42,418 bases of DNA from an uncultured Planctomycetia bacterium (GCA_964609315.1 CAZSRG010000004.1:1-42418), one strand, 5' to 3'; positions 1,576-38,399 are shown, numbered from the stretch's first letter. Made by a program: numbers and translations. Notes: generated by a model from the sequence alone, not told the origin.

Positions 1576-1640
1576 CTATCAACTATCAACTATCAACTAT
1601 CAGCTATCAGCTATGAGCCATGAGCTATCAGCCATTAGCT
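1576..1640. repeat. degenerate heptamer tandem array (ctatcaa/ctatcag/ccatgag type)
   Basis: About 9 consecutive 7-nt units read directly. The gagccatgagctat-agcca segment recurs at 35990-36013. Confidence 0.85.
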
Positions 1641-1860
1641 GACAAATATATACATCGCGCGCCCGATAAAAACTCTAAATTCTAAATTCTAAACTCTAAA
1701 CTCTAAACAATTTCAAATATCAAATGTTTTAAATCCTAAACTAAACTCTAAATTCTAATACCAAATGTTCTAAACATTGTTTTGAATTTTGTATTTTGAA
1801 CATTTAAGATTGTTTAGTATTTAGAATTTTGTGCTTAGGATTTATTTATTTTCGCTATTT
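1641..1860. repeat. family-1 heptad-periodic palindromic intergenic element, subtype A
   Basis: The left arm is made of ctctaaa/ttctaaa heptads and the right arm of tttagaa/cttagga heptads. 1696-1859 differs at only 3 positions from 36961-37124. The left flank gacaaatata..catcgcgcgcccgataaaaactctaaa recurs at 25466-25506. Confidence 0.9.
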
Positions 1861-5358: not shown

Positions 5359-5492
5359 AACCTATTTTGTTTTAACTTATCATATTATTCGGATCCTGTC
5401 AATAAAAAACACCAAATTCTCATGTCCAATTCCCTGACAACAATTCAACCATTTAACAATATAACAGTTTAACAGTTTGACAATTTAACCAT

Positions 5493-6467
5493 TTAACGCA
5501 GAATTCTATTTACTAAATCCTCCGGGCTGTATCCTTCACGAGAAAAATTAAATATTTCTCTGCCTTCAAAAAGATTAGAACCCGCGGCCGCGCCCTGCCG
5601 GAAAGCAAGATCCCTATTACCGGCAAATCCTTTTTGAAAATATACATCTGAATTTATCATATCTCCGCAGGAAAAACAAAAATCATAACCTAACCTCAGA
5701 GTCTCATCAACCTTAATCGCGCTGTTACGAATTAAAGCAGGGGTATCTTTCACAATGTCTGTATCCGGCGAAAGCACCGTATCTAAAAACAGTAAATCGC
5801 AAGCTAAGAATTTACCCGAAGACATCTTTACGGCTCTCACTCTGGATTCTCCTAAGGCTTCGCTAATATTTTCACCGGGAAGAAAATCTATACCCTTTCC
5901 TCTGAAGATAGAGGCTATTTTATCTTTGTATTCCGAAGGGAAAGAGTTAAATTCAGGAATTATGGCCTTAATTTCCTTATTGCAAATACTCCTGATTTTC
6001 AAAGATAGATCAACTGACATCAAAGTTTCACCATAAACGACAATGTGATTAAACATCCTGATGCTTTCTTTTAACCCTGAAGGCTTTACCCTCCCTAAAT
6101 AATAGACGCCCTCTTTATATTCACCGGCTATGCCGAGTTTTTTAGGCTTTAGGCCGCAGGCTAAAACTAACTTATCGAAAGACAAAGGAGTCCCTTTTTT
6201 CAAAAAGACTTTTTTCTTTTCGAAATTTACTCTTACTGCTTTGTCATTAATGATTTCTATCCCGGGAAAGATTTTTCTTAATTCTTCAAAAGATACAAAA
6301 AAATCTGTATCCGAAACCTTTCCGGCCAGCCAGTCCGATAAAAGGCACTTACGAAAAGGAAACGGTTCTTTTTCAATCAAAGAAACGTTAATACCTTCCT
6401 TATCTCTGCTTATATGCTCAATACAAGCACTTCCTGATATCCCTCCGCCTATAATAACTACTTTCAT
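5493..6467 (-). CDS. FAD-dependent pyridine nucleotide-disulfide oxidoreductase family protein
   Basis: N-terminal Rossmann motif VVIIGGGISGSA. I place the start at the ATG at 6465-6467 (MKVVIIGGG), not the longer track ORF. The second dinucleotide-binding motif looks degenerate. Confidence 0.6.
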   Translation of the reverse strand: MKVVIIGGGISGSACIEHISRDKEGINVSLIEKEPFPFRKCLLSDWLAGKVSDTDFFVSFEELRKIFPGIEIINDKAVRVNFEKKKVFLKKGTPLSFDKLVLACGLKPKKLGIAGEYKEGVYYLGRVKPSGLKESIRMFNHIVVYGETLMSVDLSLKIRSICNKEIKAIIPEFNSFPSEYKDKIASIFRGKGIDFLPGENISEALGESRVRAVKMSSGKFLACDLLFLDTVLSPDTDIVKDTPALIRNSAIKVDETLRLGYDFCFSCGDMINSDVYFQKGFAGNRDLAFRQGAAAGSNLFEGREIFNFSREGYSPEDLVNRILR

Positions 6468-6567
6468 CTTACTCTCTACTTGAAAACTCGGTATTATCAA
6501 AAATATATAAACTTTAACGCCCAAAATCTAAACTATAGATAAATTCCAATAACCAAGAAACAAGATA

Positions 6568-6593
6568 CCTGCCTACGCTAAAGCTTCGGCAGG
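6568..6593. repeat. GC-rich hairpin module (cctgcc-tacgctaaagcttc-ggcagg)
   Basis: 6-bp stem with a 14-nt loop. The same loop occurs in inverted orientation, with a compensated stem, at 38341-38366. Confidence 0.8.
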
Positions 6594-6599
6594 CAGGCA

Positions 6600-6715
6600 A
6601 ACAAATCCCAATCTCCAATAATCAATCATCAAACAACCCAATTATCTTGATTTTTATTATTTTTTTGGTTATTGAAATTTGGCTGCTGGTCATTATTTGA
6701 TTATTGTTACTTGCC
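6600..6715. repeat. palindromic intergenic element, ccaat/attgg subtype C
   Basis: The left arm is ccaatctccaataatcaatca and the right arm is ggttattgaaatttggctgctggtcattatttgattattg. The right arm resembles 17231-17262. Confidence 0.7.
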
Positions 6716-6791
6716 TGTGCCCATTAGGGTATTAGGGTATATCTTGATTATTTTATTCCCTTGACATCATTCTTTCATACGGCTCTTGACT

Positions 6792-7732: not shown

Positions 7733-8062
7733 AAAACTCTAAACTCTTCAGCCATAGGCTGATTCTAAACAAATCCTGAAAGCAAACTCTAAATTCTAAC
7801 CAAATCCTAAATCCTAATTTCTAAATTCTAAATAAATTCTAAATTTCAATCTCAAATGTTCTAAACTTTATTTTGGACTCTGCATCTTTCTGTTTTGGTC
7901 ATTTGATATTATTTAGCCTGCCTGCGTCAAGGCTTCCCTCGGCTTCGCCGAGAGGCGAGCGCCGAGAGGCAAGCGGCAGACAGGTATTTAGGGTTTATTT
8001 ATTATTTGGCATTCCGGCCTCTGTCCTTATGTATGATATCAAGACCTGACACCTGATACTGA
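7733..8062. repeat. family-1 element (mosaic, subtype A-like) with embedded GC-rich hairpin
   Basis: ctaaa heptad arm, a ctcttcagccataggctgat module shared with 38148-38170, GC hairpin 7927-7984, and right arm tatttagggtttatttattatttggc. Confidence 0.8.
7927..7984. repeat. GC-rich hairpin module, long version
   Basis: cctgcctgcgtcaaggcttccctcggcttcgccgagaggcgagcgccgagaggcaagcggcagacagg. Homologous in reverse complement to 12744-12797 and carries an internal cgccgagaggc duplication. Confidence 0.8.
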
Positions 8063-8520: not shown

Positions 8521-8735
8521 GGTATTATCAAGAATATTTTTGTTCTCTAAAACTCTAAACCCGAAACTCTAAATAAACCCCAAACATAAAACCTCAAACT
8601 CAAAACGGTAATAAATATAATACTCTTTGTTTTGGGTTTTGTGTTTCCTTCATTTTGAATTTGTTTACCCCGTTAGAGAATTTTGTCTAACATAGATTCT
8701 CTCTAACGGGGTTTAGGATTTAGAATTTAGGATTT
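8521..8735 (+). repeat. family-1 element, subtype B
   Basis: Core is aaaacggtaataaatataatactctttgttttggg. Arms are of aaac/ctaaa heptads versus tttagg heptads. The right arm overlaps the last codons of trmD. Confidence 0.85.
8668..8711. repeat. hairpin insert (ccccgttagagaa...ttctctctaacgggg) in the right arm of the family-1 element
   Basis: Imperfect stem of about 13 bp. It sits between ..gaatttgttta and tttaggatttag, the same relative site as the other inserts. Confidence 0.75.
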
Positions 8736-9476
8736 AGTGTTTCTTCCCCTTCTGCCTTCTGTAACAGGTGTCTGTCCTCTTTTATCCTTTAACAAAAGGT
8801 CCGGCCTTCTAACCATAGTCCTTTGTAAAGCCTGTTTTTCCCTCCAGTCCTTTATCCGCTTATGGTTACCCGAAAGAAGGACTGAAGGGACTCTCCATCC
8901 TTTAAAAATTCCCGGCTTAGTATAATCAGGATAATCAAGAAGCCTTTTTTCAAAACTTTCGTCTTTTACTGAATCAGGATTGCCGGGCACGCCCGGAATA
9001 AGCCTTGCCAAACAGTCAACCAATACCATAGCGGGAATTTCTCCTCCGGAAAGTATATAATCTCCTATGGATATTTCTTCATCAACTAAATGTTCCCTGA
9101 CTCTCTCGTCAACGCCCTCATAACGGCCGCAGATAAGAATAAGATGTTTCTTCTTAACCAGTCTTCTACCTTCTTTCTGAGTTAAGGCCTTCCCCTGAGG
9201 ACTTAAAAGAACAGTCCTTATATTCTTCCCGGATTTACTATATAACTTCTTTACTTTCTCTACAGCCCTGAATATTGGCTGGCACTGTAAAACCATACCC
9301 GGGCCGCCCCCATAAGGAGACGCGTCAACTTTTTTATGCTTATTATCTGTATAATCTCTTAAATTATGAACAGCTATATCGAGAAGTTTTTTGTCCCTGG
9401 CTATCTTTACCGTTCCGGAGGAAAAGACTTCCCGAAACATTTCGGGGAATATAGTAATTATATCTATCCGCATCAT
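8727..9476 (-). CDS. trmD: tRNA (guanine37-N1)-methyltransferase
   Basis: 249 aa with MRIDIITIFPEMF and the LSGGEIPAMVLVD SPOUT-knot motifs. The last codons and stop lie inside an intergenic repeat arm. Confidence 0.9.
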   Translation of the reverse strand: MMRIDIITIFPEMFREVFSSGTVKIARDKKLLDIAVHNLRDYTDNKHKKVDASPYGGGPGMVLQCQPIFRAVEKVKKLYSKSGKNIRTVLLSPQGKALTQKEGRRLVKKKHLILICGRYEGVDERVREHLVDEEISIGDYILSGGEIPAMVLVDCLARLIPGVPGNPDSVKDESFEKRLLDYPDYTKPGIFKGWRVPSVLLSGNHKRIKDWREKQALQRTMVRRPDLLLKDKRGQTPVTEGRRGRNTKS

Positions 9477-10689: not shown

Positions 10690-10690
10690 G

Positions 10691-10912
10691 CTATTTCTTA
10701 AAGAAGAGGAAGAAAATCAAAGATAGGATTACACTCAGGATAATTGAGGTTGTCAGAGGAAAATAAAAGATAAGATTCTTTTTCCGGATAAGGATATCTC
10801 CCGGAATCCTGCTTAAAAAATGAGGACTAACCTTTGATAAAAAGATAAATATTAACCCCGCGGCCAAAAAACCTATTCCCAAAACAACAAAAAACCTGCC
10901 TATATTAAACAT
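10691..10912 (-). CDS. small membrane protein, DUF2905-like
   Basis: 73 aa with two hydrophobic helices and a central PGDI motif. Confidence 0.55.
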   Translation of the reverse strand: MFNIGRFFVVLGIGFLAAGLIFIFLSKVSPHFLSRIPGDILIRKKNLIFYFPLTTSIILSVILSLIFFLFFKK

Positions 10913-10921
10913 GTCAATCTT

Positions 10922-12710: not shown

Positions 12711-12931
12711 GAAAATTAAACTCTAAACTCAAAATCCTAAATCCCTGTCTGCCGCTCGCCTCTCGGCGAAACCGATGGAAACCTTGGCACAGGCAGGCTA
12801 AATAAACACAAAATGAAAGAAAACACAAAAACCAAAACAAAGAACATTATATTTATTATCGTTTTGGGTTTGAGACATTTGAGTTTTAGATTTATTTAGA
12901 GTTTCGAGTTTAGGACTTAGAGTTTAAGATT
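12711..12931 (-). repeat. family-1 element, subtype B, inverted relative to the others
   Basis: The reverse complement of its core aligns with the cores at 8560-8665 and 21830-21900. Carries the GC hairpin at 12744-12797. Confidence 0.85.
12744..12797. repeat. GC-rich hairpin module
   Basis: cctgtctgccgctcgcctctcggcgaaaccgatggaaaccttggcacaggcagg, the reverse-complement homologue of 7927-7984. Confidence 0.8.
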
Positions 12932-19035: not shown

Positions 19036-19214
19036 CCGTTCTGTCAAAAACATTTTTATTTTCTAAAACTCTAAACACCAAACCCGAAACTCTAAATAAA
19101 TCTAAAATCACAAACTCAAAATTCAAAACATTCATCATCTTCTATCTTTATATTGTTTTGGAATTTGGATTTTCTTCATTTTGAGTTTATTTAGAATTTA
19201 GGATTTAGGATTTT
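19036..19214 (+). repeat. family-1 element, subtype B
   Basis: Starts with ccgttctgtcaaaaacatttttatt and has ctaaa heptads. The right arm is ttcttcattttgagtttatttagaatttaggatttagg. Confidence 0.85.
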
Positions 19215-19250
19215 CTCCCCCCTCATATCAACGTAATGGACTCCAAATAT

Positions 19251-21767: not shown

Positions 21768-21903
21768 CAAACTCTAAATCCTAAACTCGAAACTCTAAAC
21801 TCTAAATAAATCCCAAACTTAAATCTTTTAAACTCAAAACAATAAATATAATACTCTTTGTTTTGGGTTTTGGGTTTTGGATTTTGTGCTTTCTTCATTT
21901 TGA
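21768..21903 (+). repeat. family-1 element, subtype B, left part (interrupted by X1)
   Basis: Ends ...ttcttcattttgag, then GTTAAC of X1 begins. The expected continuation (a)gaatttaggatttagaattt resumes at 22113. Confidence 0.85.
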
Positions 21904-22112
21904 GTTAACCGGGAAAATGCTGTTGAGTGTGCGAAATATCCATAACACCTAGTAATCTAAATAATTACATTAAACGGACGTTGTATTAAAAAGTACACAG
22001 CATTTTCCCCGTAGGTAACCTCAGTCCTATCCGCCTTTCCCCCGCCTACGGCGTGGTAAACGCGGGGCTGACCCTGCGGGCAAATAATGCTAACCGCATT
22101 ATTTGGGTTAAC
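21904..22112 (+). repeat. element X1: 209-nt candidate structured RNA or miniature mobile element bounded by GTTAAC
   Basis: GTTAAC at both ends. A perfect 13-bp long-range stem pairs 21911-21923 (gggaaaatgctgt) with 21997-22009. Terminal 10-bp hairpin at 22081-22105. Homologous in reverse complement to 41607-41884. Confidence 0.8.
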
Positions 22113-22136
22113 AGAATTTAGGATTTAGAATTTCTA
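22113..22136 (+). repeat. family-1 element right-arm remainder after the X1 insertion
   Basis: agaatttaggatttagaatttc matches the right arms at 19195-19214 and 28580-28594. Confidence 0.8.
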
Positions 22137-25444: not shown

Positions 25445-25465
25445 ATCTCTCTCTATCCTCTAAGT

Positions 25466-25657
25466 GACAAATATATATACATCGCGCGCCCGATAAAAAC
25501 TCTAAACTCCAAATCCTAAATTCTAAATAAACTCAAAATTCAAATGTTCAAATGTTCAAAACAAACTTCTTTTCAATGAGTTATGAAGAACGTTTTGAAT
25601 TTTAATCATTTTGATTTTGGATTTGTTTAGGTTTTAGAGTTTAGGATTTAGGGTTTA
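25466..25657 (+). repeat. family-1 element between dxr and cdsA
   Basis: The left flank is identical in pattern to 1641-1680. Has ctaaa heptads, a caaatgttcaaatgttcaaaac centre and the right arm tttgtttaggttttagagtttaggatttagggttta. Confidence 0.85.
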
Positions 25658-25677
25658 CATGTCTGTGTATTCAATAT

Positions 25678-26514
25678 CTAAGGAATAAGGTGAACAAAAG
25701 AAATATTCTTAAGCATGGTAAAATAGAAATAAAAAACCGGAGCTGTAAATATCAGGCTATCTATCACATCTAATACCCCGCCCATACCCGAAATAAGCCT
25801 GCCCGAATCCTTAACTCCGCAGTCGCGTTTTATCAATGATTCAAACAAATCTCCCAACTGCCCTATCACGCTCAACACAAAAGACAGAAGGACAATCTGT
25901 CCCAAGTTTACCCCTTTAAGAAAGCCTCTAAACAAAACAGCAAAAAGAATACTTAACAATACCCCTCCTACCGCCCCTTCTACGGATTTTTTAGGGCTCA
26001 CCCTCTTAATAAGCGGCCTCCGGCCTAAGAACGTGCCAACAAGATAAGCGCCTATATCCTGAACCTTTACTACCGTTATCAGAAAAGCCAAAAGATAAAC
26101 CCCTCCTTCTAACGCCCTTATTCTTATAATAAAACTAAAACACCAGGACACATAAAGAACGCCGAATACAGTCCCCGACAGAGAAAGGATTGTCTCTTGA
26201 TTCTCTTTCCGGGTTAATTCTAAAAGGAATAATAAAAAAAGGCCTGATAATATAAAAAAAAGCTGCCACTCCCGGGTTACCGGGAAACGGAAGAATATTG
26301 AAAGGGGAATAATCCCCCCTAAAAAAAGGCCGAATATCTTAAATAATTTTACACCTTTCTTCTCCAGCATGGAAAAGAATTCCCAGAGGCCTAAAAGGGT
26401 AAGAAAAACAACTGTAATAAAACACAAAGGCTTTACAATAATCGCAGCAACACTCACCCCTATTAAAATAATCCCGCTTACAACTCTTTTTCTCATACTC
26501 TTAAACTTTGCCAA
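25678..26514 (-). CDS. cdsA: phosphatidate cytidylyltransferase
   Basis: 278 aa, polytopic, with a C-terminal SLIKRDCGVKDSG...GMGGVLDVIDS signature region. It deviates from the usual ...HGG..DR.D pattern as I remember it. Confidence 0.8.
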   Translation of the reverse strand: MAKFKSMRKRVVSGIILIGVSVAAIIVKPLCFITVVFLTLLGLWEFFSMLEKKGVKLFKIFGLFLGGIIPLSIFFRFPVTREWQLFFILSGLFLLFLLELTRKENQETILSLSGTVFGVLYVSWCFSFIIRIRALEGGVYLLAFLITVVKVQDIGAYLVGTFLGRRPLIKRVSPKKSVEGAVGGVLLSILFAVLFRGFLKGVNLGQIVLLSFVLSVIGQLGDLFESLIKRDCGVKDSGRLISGMGGVLDVIDSLIFTAPVFYFYFTMLKNISFVHLIP

Positions 26515-27226
26515 ACCTTCTCTCCCTCATTTTAAAAGAGTCCAGGGCTTTATCAAACTCTCCGGCTGTGAAATCGGGCCATAGGACATTGGTAAAATAC
26601 AACTCGGCATAAGCTATGCGCCAAAGCATAAAATTGCTTATCCGCTCCTCTCCTGAAGTGCGTATTAATAAGTCCACATCCGGAATAAACGGATCATAGA
26701 GATACCCTTGAAAGAACCTTTCATCTAAAGACTTTAGGCTTAAGGAACCTTCTTTAAAATCCTCCGCTATTCTCTTAGCAGCAAAAACGATTTCATCCCT
26801 CCCCCCGTAGTTAAAAGCTATGTTCAGGATGATTTTATCATTATCTTTTGTTTCCTCAACAGCTTCATCTATTCCCGATATTAAATCTTCAGGCAGGCCT
26901 CTTCTCGAGCCCATAACATTAAAGCGGATATCTTTATCACCCTTATTTTCAGACAGGTATTTTTTGAAAGAAGAGAACAAGAAATCAATTTCCTCCTTTG
27001 GCCTTGACCAGTTCTCGGTAGAAAAAGCAAACAAGCTCAGTATTCGGACTCCTCTATCCTTAGCAGATTTAATCACCTTTTGGACATTATCTATCCCTCT
27101 CTTGTGGCCAAAATTCCTGGGCAAGCCTCTTTTCTCCGCCCAACGGCCGTTCCCGTCCATTATTAAGGCTACATGATAAGGAACCGCTGATAATTTACTC
27201 ATTTTATTATTATTTTTTATCGCCAT
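26501..27226 (-). CDS. uppS: undecaprenyl (isoprenyl) diphosphate synthase
   Basis: 241 aa with IMDGNGRWA and the RTSGEERISNFMLWR motifs. Confidence 0.9.
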   Translation of the reverse strand: MAIKNNNKMSKLSAVPYHVALIMDGNGRWAEKRGLPRNFGHKRGIDNVQKVIKSAKDRGVRILSLFAFSTENWSRPKEEIDFLFSSFKKYLSENKGDKDIRFNVMGSRRGLPEDLISGIDEAVEETKDNDKIILNIAFNYGGRDEIVFAAKRIAEDFKEGSLSLKSLDERFFQGYLYDPFIPDVDLLIRTSGEERISNFMLWRIAYAELYFTNVLWPDFTAGEFDKALDSFKMRERRFGKV

Positions 27227-27290
27227 TAGCCATTCGCTATTCGCTCTTGGCTATTCGCTATTCGCTATTTGCCATTTGCCATTAGGCCCC
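27221..27290. repeat. degenerate heptamer tandem array (ccattag/ccattcg/ctattcg type)
   Basis: About 9-10 consecutive 7-nt units. The related short array ctatttgccattcgctattta lies at 1853-1875. Confidence 0.85.
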
Positions 27291-28381: not shown

Positions 28382-28407
28382 AAGGTCCCCCTTATTCTTA
28401 ATCACGT

Positions 28408-28600
28408 ATTGTCAAAGCTATCTTTGTTTTCTAAAACTCTAAACTCTAAATCCAAAACTCTAAATAAACCTAAAACTCAAATGCTTTAAACTCAAAACAT
28501 TAATAAATATACTGCTTTTGCTTTAAACTATATTGTTTTGGGTTTTGGGTTTTCTTCATTTTGAGTTTGTTTAGGGTTTAGAATTTAGGATTTTCTCCCC
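28408..28600 (+). repeat. family-1 element, subtype B
   Basis: Starts attgtcaaagctatctttgtt and has ctaaa heptads. The right arm is ttcttcattttgagtttgtttagggtttagaatttaggatttt. Confidence 0.85.
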
Positions 28601-28645
28601 GCTACTTATACTTTTTCATACAACTCTTGACACTACTTTTGAACT

Positions 28646-28674
28646 ATCTTACCATATGGCAAATACCCCGTCAA
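28646..28674 (-). promoter_or_regulatory. candidate sigma70-type promoter upstream of the OmpA-like gene
   Basis: On the minus strand: TTGACG (28674-28669), a 17-nt spacer, then TAAGAT (28651-28646). The family-1 element would then lie in the 5' UTR. Confidence 0.3.
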
Positions 28675-31749: not shown

Positions 31750-31893
31750 AATCAAAACCTCCTTACATTAGCCGCTAAAACAAAAGACATAAAACAGATT
31801 GATACATTATTAAATTGCTAAACTGTTAAACTGCTAAACAAAAACAAAATATAGAAAATAGATAAATACACAAGACTCAATCATCCTTTGCCG

Positions 31894-34749: not shown

Positions 34750-34932
34750 ATAAATCAGCTATCTGTAATTACTCTGGCTGTTGATAGATAATTCTTTCGT
34801 TTTAGCATAATTAGCGAGTCTGCCATTCGCCATCCTCTGTATTTGTTAACAATTCAACCATTTAACAATATATTAATGTATTAATCTCTTCTCTCATTCT
34901 CTGACTCCTGCCCTCTGACTTCTGTCCTCTGC

Positions 34933-35951: not shown

Positions 35952-35960
35952 ATAAATTAG

Positions 35961-36013
35961 CTCTTTGCTCTTTGTTACTATCTCTTTGCTAAGAGCCATG
36001 AGCTATGAGCCAA
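35961..36013. repeat. degenerate heptamer tandem array (ctctttg/ccatgag type)
   Basis: Reads ctctttg ctctttg ttactat ctctttg ctaagag ccatgag ctatgag. Shares the ccatgagctat-agcc segment with 1606-1640. Confidence 0.75.
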
Positions 36014-36940: not shown

Positions 36941-37188
36941 CAAACTCTAAATCCTAAATTCTAAACTCTAAACAATTTCAAATATCAAATGTTCTAAATC
37001 CTAAACTAAACTCTAAATTCTAATACCAAATGTTCTAAACATTGTTTTGAATTTTGTATTTTGAACATTTGAGATTGTTTAGTATTTAGAATTTAGTGCT
37101 TAGGATTTATTTATCATTTGGTCATCTGACTTCTGCCCTTTGTCTTCTATCAATGTGTAGGCCTGACCCCTATTCCGGTATTTGTGTT
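36941..37188. repeat. family-1 element, subtype A, plus right-flank module
   Basis: 36961-37124 differs at 3 positions from 1696-1859. The right flank tttggtcatctgacttctgccc...caatgtgtaggcctgac recurs at 38311-38392. Confidence 0.9.
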
Positions 37189-37951: not shown

Positions 37952-38246
37952 AAAACTTCACTCCATCTTACACTCCGTAAATGTCGTGGATTATCTTTAC
38001 GAAGTATAATACCGAGTTATTCTTTTGCTCCCCCACTAATAACTCGCCATTAATCACTAACTACTAAATTCTCTAAACAAAGTCTGAAAGCAAATTCTAA
38101 ATTCTAAACTCTAAACAATTTCAAATATCAAATGTTCTAAATTCTAAACTCTTCAACTATAGGCTGATCCGCCTCAGGCGGAAAATTCTAATACTGTTCT
38201 AAACATTGTTTTGAATTTTGTATTTTGAACATTTGAGATTGTTTAG

Positions 38247-38276
38247 CCTGCCTGCGCCAAGGTTTCGGCAGGCAGG
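38247..38276. repeat. 30-bp GC-rich hairpin module cleanly inserted into the family-1 right arm
   Basis: cctgcctgcgccaaggtttcggcaggcagg is present here and absent at the matching junction gattgtttag|tatttag (37081-37083). Confidence 0.9.
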
Positions 38277-38340
38277 TATTTAGGATTTAGTGCTTAGGAT
38301 TTATTTATTATTTGGCCATCTGACTTCTGCTCTCTGCCTG

Positions 38341-38366
38341 CCCTCCGAAGCTTTAGCGTAGGAGGG
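38341..38366. repeat. GC-rich hairpin module (ccctcc-gaagctttagcgta-ggaggg)
   Basis: Inverted homologue of 6568-6593 with two compensatory base-pair changes in the stem. Confidence 0.8.
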
Positions 38367-38399
38367 TCTCCTGTCAATGTGTAGGCCTGACATTCCGGA

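Follow-up and report, generated by a model that had tools for sequence, protein, structure and literature searches.

Heptad-armed palindromes dispersed through an Omnitrophota genome are probably gene-less derivatives of a four-helix-bundle cassette

The 42,418-nt stretch of DNA analyzed here (GCA_964609315.1, CAZSRG010000004.1:1-42418), hereafter called the window, is contig C4 of a 1.44-Mb metagenome-assembled genome (MAG) of an uncultured Omnitrophota bacterium, which comprises 115 contigs and is 96% complete. Ten loci in the window (E1 to E10; Table 1), among them the focal element E9, belong to a family of dispersed, AT-rich, non-coding elements of 150-330 nt whose arms are built from complementary 7-nt units. 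We consider it probable, at roughly 0.8, that these elements are internally deleted descendants of a ~500-nt cassette encoding a four-helix-bundle protein of the PF05635/TIGR02436 type, and that they are comparable to MITEs, miniature transposable elements with inverted repeats. A preliminary description of the window had drawn attention to the palindromes but missed their origin in a cassette; heptad arms are a property of this cassette class across phyla.

The only PF05635 gene in the genome (C61:6654-7013) is located exactly between two family loci. It is part of an intact cassette of ~500 nt at C61:6556-7055, of which one copy is left. The product of the intact open reading frame (ORF), MTKMENSKQYDLEER, scored 65.8 bits on TIGR02436 (cut-off 24) and 45 bits on PF05635 (cut-off 33.8), and matched the PDB structure 2rld with E = 3e-12. 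The flanking genes are ordinary and co-directional, and no reverse transcriptase was found among them.

Alignment of E9 to C61:6556-7055 revealed 91.6% identity over 167 columns, interrupted by a single long gap, and E1 aligned to the cassette with 90.4% identity and the same ORF-sized gap. The gap corresponds to C61:6652-6986, so that the ORF is missing from approximately codon 10 up to and including its stop. The beginning of the ORF, start codon included, sits within the arm and is retained in elements of subtypes A and B (for example, MKKTQNPKQY in E8 and MFKIQNSKQC in E10), while a weaker remnant, MIKIQN, was read by eye in subtype C. All eight remnant starts assessed with the pattern M.[KR].[QEK][NK].[KN][QPK][YC] were found on the strand of the flanking genes. 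Thus, the standard orientation of the elements is the one that would co-transcribe the lost gene with the host operon. Folding at minimum free energy paired the two terminal 110-nt segments with each other through 63 base pairs in the C61 cassette and through 49 in the gene-bearing cassette of another Omnitrophota MAG (L122).

The arms have the structure that was initially proposed for them, a run of 7-nt units on the left and the complementary run on the right. This was the case at all ten loci, with AAAYYCT-type units in the 5' arm and AGRRTTT units in the 3' arm. Autocorrelation at lag 7 exceeded that at all other lags between 5 and 10 in each of the ten loci, with z scores of +4.2 to +7.9 relative to dinucleotide shuffles and a harmonic at lag 14; the 7-nt period is therefore significant in every locus. 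Fourier power at period 7.0 over whole elements, on the other hand, was not significant in any locus because the phase slips. Units keep phase only locally, over runs of 3-6 that are broken by slips to 6, 8 or 9 nt, and the earlier characterization of the phasing as strict was overstated. Strictly phased arms, defined as at least four AAA or TTT triplets at a 7-nt phase (that is, at least three full units), numbered 46 and 43 genome-wide as opposed to 0 in shuffles, and the median arm length was 32 nt, or 4.6 units.

Tandem arrays in this genome have, by a wide margin, most often a period of 7 (365 of 1,306 arrays, 290 of which are intergenic). Lag peaks at 7, 14 and 21 are found across intergenic DNA overall, whereas coding DNA is devoid of them. 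The lengths of indels between paralogous copies display a secondary peak at exactly 7 nt, which indicates that whole units are gained and lost. Each unit, as read from the sequence, contains TAA (5' arm) or TAG (3' arm). A 7-nt spacing shifts the frame from unit to unit, and each frame that enters an element from either side is thus closed within 21 nt.

The potential of the elements to form hairpins was confirmed by RNA folding, with z scores of -5.6, -5.4 and -3.4 relative to shuffles, the first two being those of the minus and plus strands of E9. Rfam covariance models, that of the Gut-1 motif included, were run over the whole window and produced no matches at the gathering threshold and none at E <= 1. 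The family does not fall into two core subtypes, as had been thought, but into at least three (A, B and C) plus mosaics. The claim that positions 36961-37124 and 1696-1859 differ at 3 of 164 positions was correct with respect to their near-identity, since the first 154 positions contain only 3 differences; beyond them, however, the final 10 are unrelated, and the full ungapped count is 12 of 164. A repeat finder placed E9 at 97% identity to 1677-1849 over 173 nt, about 35 kb away.

We used the ten elements as BLAST queries to take a census of the family. It comprised 100 loci on 47 of the 115 contigs, several of them at contig ends, and is thus not confined to the region of the window, the outcome that would have spoken against a dispersed family. 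Ninety-eight of the 100 loci are intergenic. The elements add up to 1.0% of the genome and account for 6.4% of its intergenic DNA. That almost all long gaps are filled by them is true of the window, with elements in 10 of its 14 spacers of at least 150 nt, but not of the genome, where the corresponding count is 68 of 368.

The occupied spacers of this length are unevenly distributed: an element is present in 64 of the 310 spacers between co-directional genes, in 4 of the 23 between convergent genes and in none of the 35 between divergent genes. Between co-directional genes, 52 copies were found in the standard orientation and 6 in the inverted one (p = 3e-10); in the window, nine of the ten loci are co-oriented and 12711-12931 is inverted, as described previously. 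Eight copies overlap the stop codon of the upstream gene. One of these is E3, whose arm provides the final codons and the stop codon of trmD. Given this placement and orientation, the elements are expected to be transcribed within operon mRNAs, where their arms would be able to pair into a long stem.

Evidence of mobility comes from subtype C, the type of E7 and the youngest of the family, whose copies are 94-97% identical on at least six contigs (E7 itself matches copies on C14, C24, C44, C68 and C5 at this level). The ends of subtype C are sharp and mutually inverted, with the consensus TGACAAATATATATACATCG and CGATGTCTGTGTATTCAATA; E7 has ACATG in place of ACGATG. The left terminus occurs 12 times in the genome, as opposed to 0 times for its reversed control. 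In the ten subtype-C copies with two ends, the 6-bp flanks matched at 6 of 6 positions in five copies, 5 of 6 in three and 4 of 6 in two. The mean match was 5.3 of 6, and the total was reached by none of 100,000 permutations. The duplicated targets vary from copy to copy (for example, TCTAAG, GCTATT, ATTAAG, GTTTAC and ATTACT). Several copies hold nested small hairpins or another MITE. The recent spread suggested in the preliminary description is thus borne out by the 97% identical copies 35 kb apart, by the subtype-C duplications and by the short orthologous spacers of related genomes considered below.

We surveyed PF05635 genes in 40 relatives from the same order and in 12 unrelated genomes (Pedobacter, Chryseobacterium, Ulvibacterium, Nostoc, Okeania, Geminocystis, an Ignavibacteria MAG, four Patescibacteria and an "Elusimicrobia" MAG), which together represent at least five phyla. 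No PF05635 match was found in Geminocystis. Forty-four of the 57 genes were flanked by an inverted repeat with z > 4, compared to 4 of 113 neighboring genes used as a control (Fisher p = 2.7e-24). An arm of at least 25 nt was present at 39 PF05635 genes and 3 controls, and lag 7 was the best lag at 32 and 3, respectively (p = 9e-16 for heptad arms). The unit sequences were very diverse and included CGTAACG, AAGTTCT, ATCAATK, AGAAGTT and GGGGGCA. Among the 40 relatives, the number of PF05635 genes correlated with the number of repeat hits (rho 0.63, p = 1e-5). The 7-nt period is not special to the family in the window but general to the arms around PF05635 genes in many phyla.

Arm similarity tracked protein identity (Spearman 0.23; 0 of 1,000 permutations). 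The proteins closest to that of C61 were found in a Terrybacteria MAG (60% identity) and in the Omnitrophota locus L122 (53%), compared to a median of 32%. The same AAAYYCT arms are present at both places, MHSZ01000026 of Candidatus Terrybacteria (L222/L075) and JAHFGE010000154 (L122), and both cassettes are gene-bearing. The tracking of protein identity by the arms and the arms shared by distant MAGs indicate that gene and arms travel together, also across phyla, and the pattern points to whole-cassette transfer between Omnitrophota and Patescibacteria.

A public scan for (AAAYYCT)4 found arrays in many phyla and was dominated by unpaired cyanobacterial and Bacteroidota arrays and by telomere-like runs at contig ends. 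A complementary arm was located nearby in 9 of 80 loci, which belong to Omnitrophota, Patescibacteria, an "Elusimicrobia" MAG and one MAG each under the labels Gammaproteobacteria, Saprospiraceae and unclassified bacterium. The other 71 loci, among them every one from cyanobacteria, lacked such an arm within 300 nt. Heptad hairpins were also seen in operon spacers of five relatives (G017, G026, G027, G031 and G032; L041-L045), with many unrelated units such as GACCATW, CAGGGTA, GCTACAR, GAACGTY, AGTCGAY and others. Within the window's own family, 20-kb samples of the eight other genomes contained none in seven cases and five weaker hits in the remaining one (G006). The heptad-hairpin load across the order is patchy.

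We propose the following explanation. An ORF-bearing cassette would have lost its ORF by internal deletion and given rise to about 100 non-coding imperfect palindromes. These would spread by transposition of a cut-and-insert type that duplicates 6 bp of the target, which is seen for the youngest subtype and extrapolated to the older mosaics. The elements may also recombine with one another through their similar arms, gaining or losing 7-nt units. They would persist almost only between co-directional genes, with the ORF or its remnant oriented with host transcription. Comparison to MITEs is then apt in that the elements are small and dispersed, have inverted ends and, in one subtype, 6-bp duplications, but it fails in one respect. 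A MITE is a deletion derivative of a transposase-encoding element; the elements described here are deletion derivatives, but their parent encodes a four-helix-bundle protein and no known transposase.

A number of observations weigh against this explanation. The cassette protein has no known catalytic motif, and no enzyme can be named. The sole DDE transposase found is IS481-like (405 aa; 200.8 bits on NF033577) and sits alone on C115, which at 1,697 nt is the smallest contig and likely represents a collapsed multi-copy insertion sequence. The IS481 family makes 6-bp duplications; the 22-bp inverted ends of this copy (TGTTCCCACA and AAATTGCACA) are unlike the termini of the elements, and it was rejected as their mobilizer. 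PF01609 is absent from this genome. A pattern search for the subtype-C termini in 85 genomes of the order identified no longer element, only short copies, 12 of which are in this genome. A pair of weak terminus matches on C28 was discarded as it encloses ordinary genes, and so was an exact match in G039, a stray terminus after a gene.

The target duplications are, moreover, limited to subtype C. None were seen at subtypes A and B, whose ends are fuzzy or mosaic, although terminal ends could be assigned to subtype B (GTATTGTCAA and TTGACACTAC). The strict remnant-start motif is found in just 9 of 76 loci. Since the genome is a MAG in 115 contigs, both the copy number of the family and the single-copy status of the PF05635 gene are lower bounds. 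Finally, the spacer between trmD and rplS is 211 nt long here as opposed to 5-38 nt in seven close relatives, and that between rplS and rnhB 432 nt as opposed to 10-95 nt, but the nearest genomes are ~65-68% identical in TrmD, so these "empty" sites are comparisons between genera rather than strain alleles. In several other genera, the same orthologous spacers carry heptad hairpins of quite different units.

Among the alternatives, we examined whether the palindromes could be moved as single-stranded hairpins by Y1/HUH transposases, in the manner of repetitive extragenic palindromes (REPs) and bacterial interspersed mosaic elements (BIMEs), to which they had been likened, or of REPINs. The genome indeed encodes eight PF01797 (RAYT-like) proteins of 174-346 aa, on C24, C32, C2, C38, C9, C43 and C21. 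The longer ones (~310-335 aa; C24, C32, C2 and C38) have a tail similar to DnaA domain IV at the C terminus; the one on C24, which was scanned against NCBIfam, scored 76.5 bits on the model of REP-associated tyrosine transposases (RAYTs), and it is for this protein only that the tail is confirmed. Such an enzyme would also be in line with the strong orientation bias of the elements. However, none of the eight genes has a family element within 3 kb, and the number of Y1 genes does not track repeat hits across 41 genomes (rho 0.25, p = 0.12). The elements carry 6-bp duplications, whereas Y1 transposition makes none, and they are AT-rich and 150-330 nt long, unlike the GC-rich, 20-40-nt REPs. The likeness to REP/BIME-RAYT systems therefore fails, and we regard this mechanism as highly improbable. 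We give equally little credence to an origin in place, by slippage during replication of heptamers and fold-back copying, as envisaged for short tandemly repeated repetitive (STRR) and other simple sequences, with no mobility involved. Slippage would explain the dominance of period 7 among tandem arrays, the majority of which are intergenic, the excess of exact 7-nt indels among copies and the occurrence of several other heptamer classes as unpaired direct arrays. It accounts for drift in the number of units but not for origin or dispersal: the copies have long non-repetitive cores in common, cores that keep the gene remnant, as well as defined termini, copy-specific target duplications and 97% identity at a distance of 35 kb.

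The order of events could also be the reverse, with a gene-less heptad hairpin being primary and the four-helix-bundle gene a cargo that landed in one loop. Gene-less copies outnumber the gene-bearing one about 100 to 1, and insertion into the elements is seen for small hairpins and for another MITE. Nevertheless, the gene-less copies retain a start and about nine codons, the deletion stops at the stop codon, the same arm type is paired with the same protein subfamily in another Omnitrophota MAG and in the Terrybacteria MAG, and 77% of PF05635 genes across phyla carry arms; the reverse order is thus very unlikely. Somewhat less so, but still unlikely, is that the hairpins are kept by the host as RNA signals for intercistronic processing, stability or termination in operon mRNAs. 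Their gene-sense orientation (52:6), their absence from divergent, promoter-bearing spacers and the stability of their folds would be expected of such signals. In addition, some copies provide stop codons or lie in leaders, and the TAA or TAG in each unit leads to stops in three frames on both strands. These features are countered by the short spacers of near relatives and by the properties of the stems themselves. Free energy showed no consistent strand preference, the lower-energy strand varying by locus, and arm mismatches were G.U-compatible in 132 cases on the sense strand versus 130 on the antisense strand. No covariation was detected among ten copies of subtype B (covariation term +0.19; compensatory changes in 2 of 27 pairs). 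The stems are not terminator-like: between 19000 and 38500, no site with a GC-rich stem and a U-tract coincided with an element. Promoters did not coincide with elements either, except for one located just upstream of E8. There is, in short, no sign of host selection on the stems, and selfish DNA that the host tolerates is the best reading of the elements.

The RNA-signal explanation is further at odds with the apparent lack of RNase III. PF14622 and PF00636 had no match in this genome (G000), tblastn with Escherichia coli Rnc returned nothing below E = 2, and the signature motif was absent. PF00636 was missing from 37 of the 41 genomes searched, and the four matches were just 150-185 aa long. 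Cleavage of the RNase III type, as suggested in the preliminary description, is therefore not to be assumed here, and the mode of excision used by intervening sequences (IVSs) of rRNA is probably not operating. We speculate that the apparent absence of RNase III may help the elements to be tolerated. More generally, long-stem inserts in mRNA may be tolerated where a double-strand-specific nuclease is missing.

An extension of the cassette explanation, which we regard as possible but doubtful, is that the PF05635 protein acts in trans on heptamer arrays, gene and arrays forming a self-propagating pair comparable to RAYT and REPIN. A pentameric ring could then read about one 7-nt unit per protomer, in keeping with the median arm of 4.6 units, and the single gene copy could service about 100 gene-less copies. 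If this were true, much of the unexplained heptanucleotide DNA of bacteria (STRR and the repeats of Xanthomonas and Geobacter) and the IVSs of rRNA would stem from a single class of mobile element without a classical transposase.

Among known elements, Correia/NEMIS of Neisseria and ERIC of enterobacteria are operon-dwelling MITEs that fold in mRNA. Like them, the elements described here are small, non-coding, multi-copy and intergenic, with terminal inverted repeats, target duplications, nested and mosaic copies and, presumably, co-transcription with flanking genes. Unlike them, they derive from a four-helix-bundle cassette rather than a transposase-bearing insertion sequence, their whole body is a palindrome of 7-nt units, and 6 bp are duplicated instead of TA. 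The STRR of cyanobacteria are reportedly direct heptamer arrays. The TAACTGA repeats of Beggiatoaceae are direct heptamer repeats as well (PMC4679880). Both share with our family the intergenic location of tandem heptanucleotides, an orientation relative to the downstream gene and stops in all three frames, but they are mostly unpaired direct arrays.

Paired heptamers have been described in Xanthomonas as gene-less convergent arrays of GGGAATC (PMC4692102), and multicopy elements with 4-5 heptanucleotides are present in Geobacter metallireducens (PMC2700814). As in our case, these are intergenic inverted arrays of about 4-5 heptamers that occur in tens to hundreds of copies and are capable of forming stem-loops. 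They were interpreted as quadruplex-forming or regulator-binding, with no gene family, termini or duplications linked to them, whereas a gene-bearing parent is identified here. REPIN-RAYT systems (PMC3116915) offer another parallel, a single-copy gene flanked by repeats of which hundreds of gene-less hairpin copies are spread over the genome; the gene in our case encodes no Y1 transposase, none of the eight RAYT-like genes adjoins an element, and target duplications are present.

The 23S rRNA IVSs of Coxiella and Leptospira contain the same PF05635/S23p gene in the loop of a long inverted-repeat stem, and suspicions that IVSs are mobile and selfish go back a long time (PMC4990558). In Coxiella burnetii, the selfish IVS in helix 45 of the 23S rRNA carries an S23p ORF and has a terminal stem of 28 bp, which RNase III cuts; 2-3 tandem GACAGAT heptamers, their number varying by strain, are located in the arm just upstream of the ATG (PMC4990558). 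The copies described here differ in being positioned between protein-coding genes, with none in helix 9, 25 or 45 of 23S rRNA, in numbering about 100, mostly gene-less, in having target-site duplications and in residing in a genome with no detectable gene for RNase III, the enzyme that excises rRNA IVSs.

To our knowledge, neither bacterial heptanucleotide repeats, known since 1990, nor the S23p IVSs of rRNA, known since the early 1990s, have an accepted origin or function, and our literature search found no paper that links a heptamer repeat class to the PF05635 gene family. The cassette explanation traces heptamer repeats and rRNA IVSs to a single type of mobile DNA. A heptad-armed cassette that still bears its gene, about 100 descendants stripped of it, recent copies and target-site duplications are seen together in one genome. 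It also provides a handle for annotation, in that heptad-armed hairpins in operon spacers of Omnitrophota and Patescibacteria could be labelled as cassette derivatives rather than regulatory RNAs.

Table 1. Elements of the heptad-armed family and associated features in the window
Feature	Position	Strand	Remarks
E1, mosaic in which a subtype-A core is joined to a left terminus of subtype C (1640-1657)	1640-1849	-	Alignment of copies
E2, A-like, nested GC-rich hairpin inserts, between rplS and rnhB	7733-8062	-	Spacer of 34-95 nt at this site in close relatives
E3, subtype B, nested 45-nt hairpin	8521-8742	-	Direct repeat at 8711-8742
E4, subtype B, inverted orientation, nested GC-rich insert (about 12732-12812)	12711-12931	+	
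E5, subtype B	19036-19216	-	
E6, subtype B, interrupted by an unrelated small element (about 21904-22112)	21768-22136	-	
Left target-site duplication of E7, TCTAAG	25459-25464	.	
E7, subtype C, complete copy between cdsA and dxr	25465-25676	-	Inverted termini TGACAAATATATATACATCG and CGATGTCTGTGTATTCAATA
Right target-site duplication of E7, TCTAAG	25677-25682	.	
E8, subtype B, in the leader of an OmpA-family gene	28406-28636	-	Bounded by GTATTGTCAA and TTGACACTAC
Promoter-like site, TTGACG, 17 nt, TG-n-TAAGAT (extended -10)	28646-28674	-	Consensus match only
E9, focal, subtype A, gene-less copy of the C61 cassette	36941-37114	-	Right-hand extension to about 37188
Remnant of the first 9-10 ORF codons (MFKIQNSKQ...) inside the E9 arm	37040-37068	-	Compared with the C61 ORF
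E10, subtype A, two small hairpins nested in the arms	38066-38399	-	100% identical to E9 over 52 nt

The window contains 36 ORFs, all on the minus strand and all housekeeping genes. They include glgA, polA, rnhB, rplS, trmD, tgt, ruvB, scpA, infB, nusA and rimP as well as ispG, rseP, dxr, cdsA, uppS, purA, serA, clpP, tig, lptB and kdsA. None of the 36 encodes a transposase, in agreement with the preliminary description, which was also correct in assigning the gene order uppS-cdsA/dxr-rseP-ispG that is split by an element. The promoter-like site near E8 finishes a few bases before the upstream end of the element, so E8 would form the extreme 5' end of the OmpA-family mRNA. The 232-nt "spacer" between ruvB and tgt (10690-10921) reads as a small hydrophobic ORF (RIPGDILIRKKNLIFYFPLTTSIILSVILSLIFFLFF), and a relative (L043) encodes a peptide like it. 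Rather than a gap, this is probably a small membrane protein that escaped annotation.

Small hairpins are nested in heptad arms at recurring positions (38247-38276, 6568-6597, 8674-8718, 38139-38190, 7734-7763 and 12732-12812), with CCTGCCTGC..GCAGGCAGG, ACCCCGTTAGAG..CTCTAACGGGG, and CAGCCATAGGCTG and CCGCCTCAGGCGG as examples. They recall the very small dispersed repeats that are said to insert into heptamer arrays of Nostoc. A second palindromic family is represented at 6525-6791 by AACCAAT/ATTGGTT-type units with a GC-rich hairpin nested in the 3' arm; its architecture is like that of the AAAYYCT family but its sequence is different. Four further sites, at 1575-1640, 27220-27283, 34899-34931 and 35960-36010, contain other heptamer classes abutting gene starts or stops. 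Their units (ATCAGCT/ATCAACT, TCGCTAT, CTCTGAC and GCTCTTT) form direct arrays that are mostly unpaired. Genome-wide, the next commonest heptamer units are AACCAAT (18 arrays), AAGACAG (15) and ACAGAGG (8). Arrays of period 8 are found in the spacers at 5439-5497 and 31811-31839 (AACAATTT and TAAACTGC), and period 8, with 100 arrays, is the second commonest intergenic tandem period in the genome.

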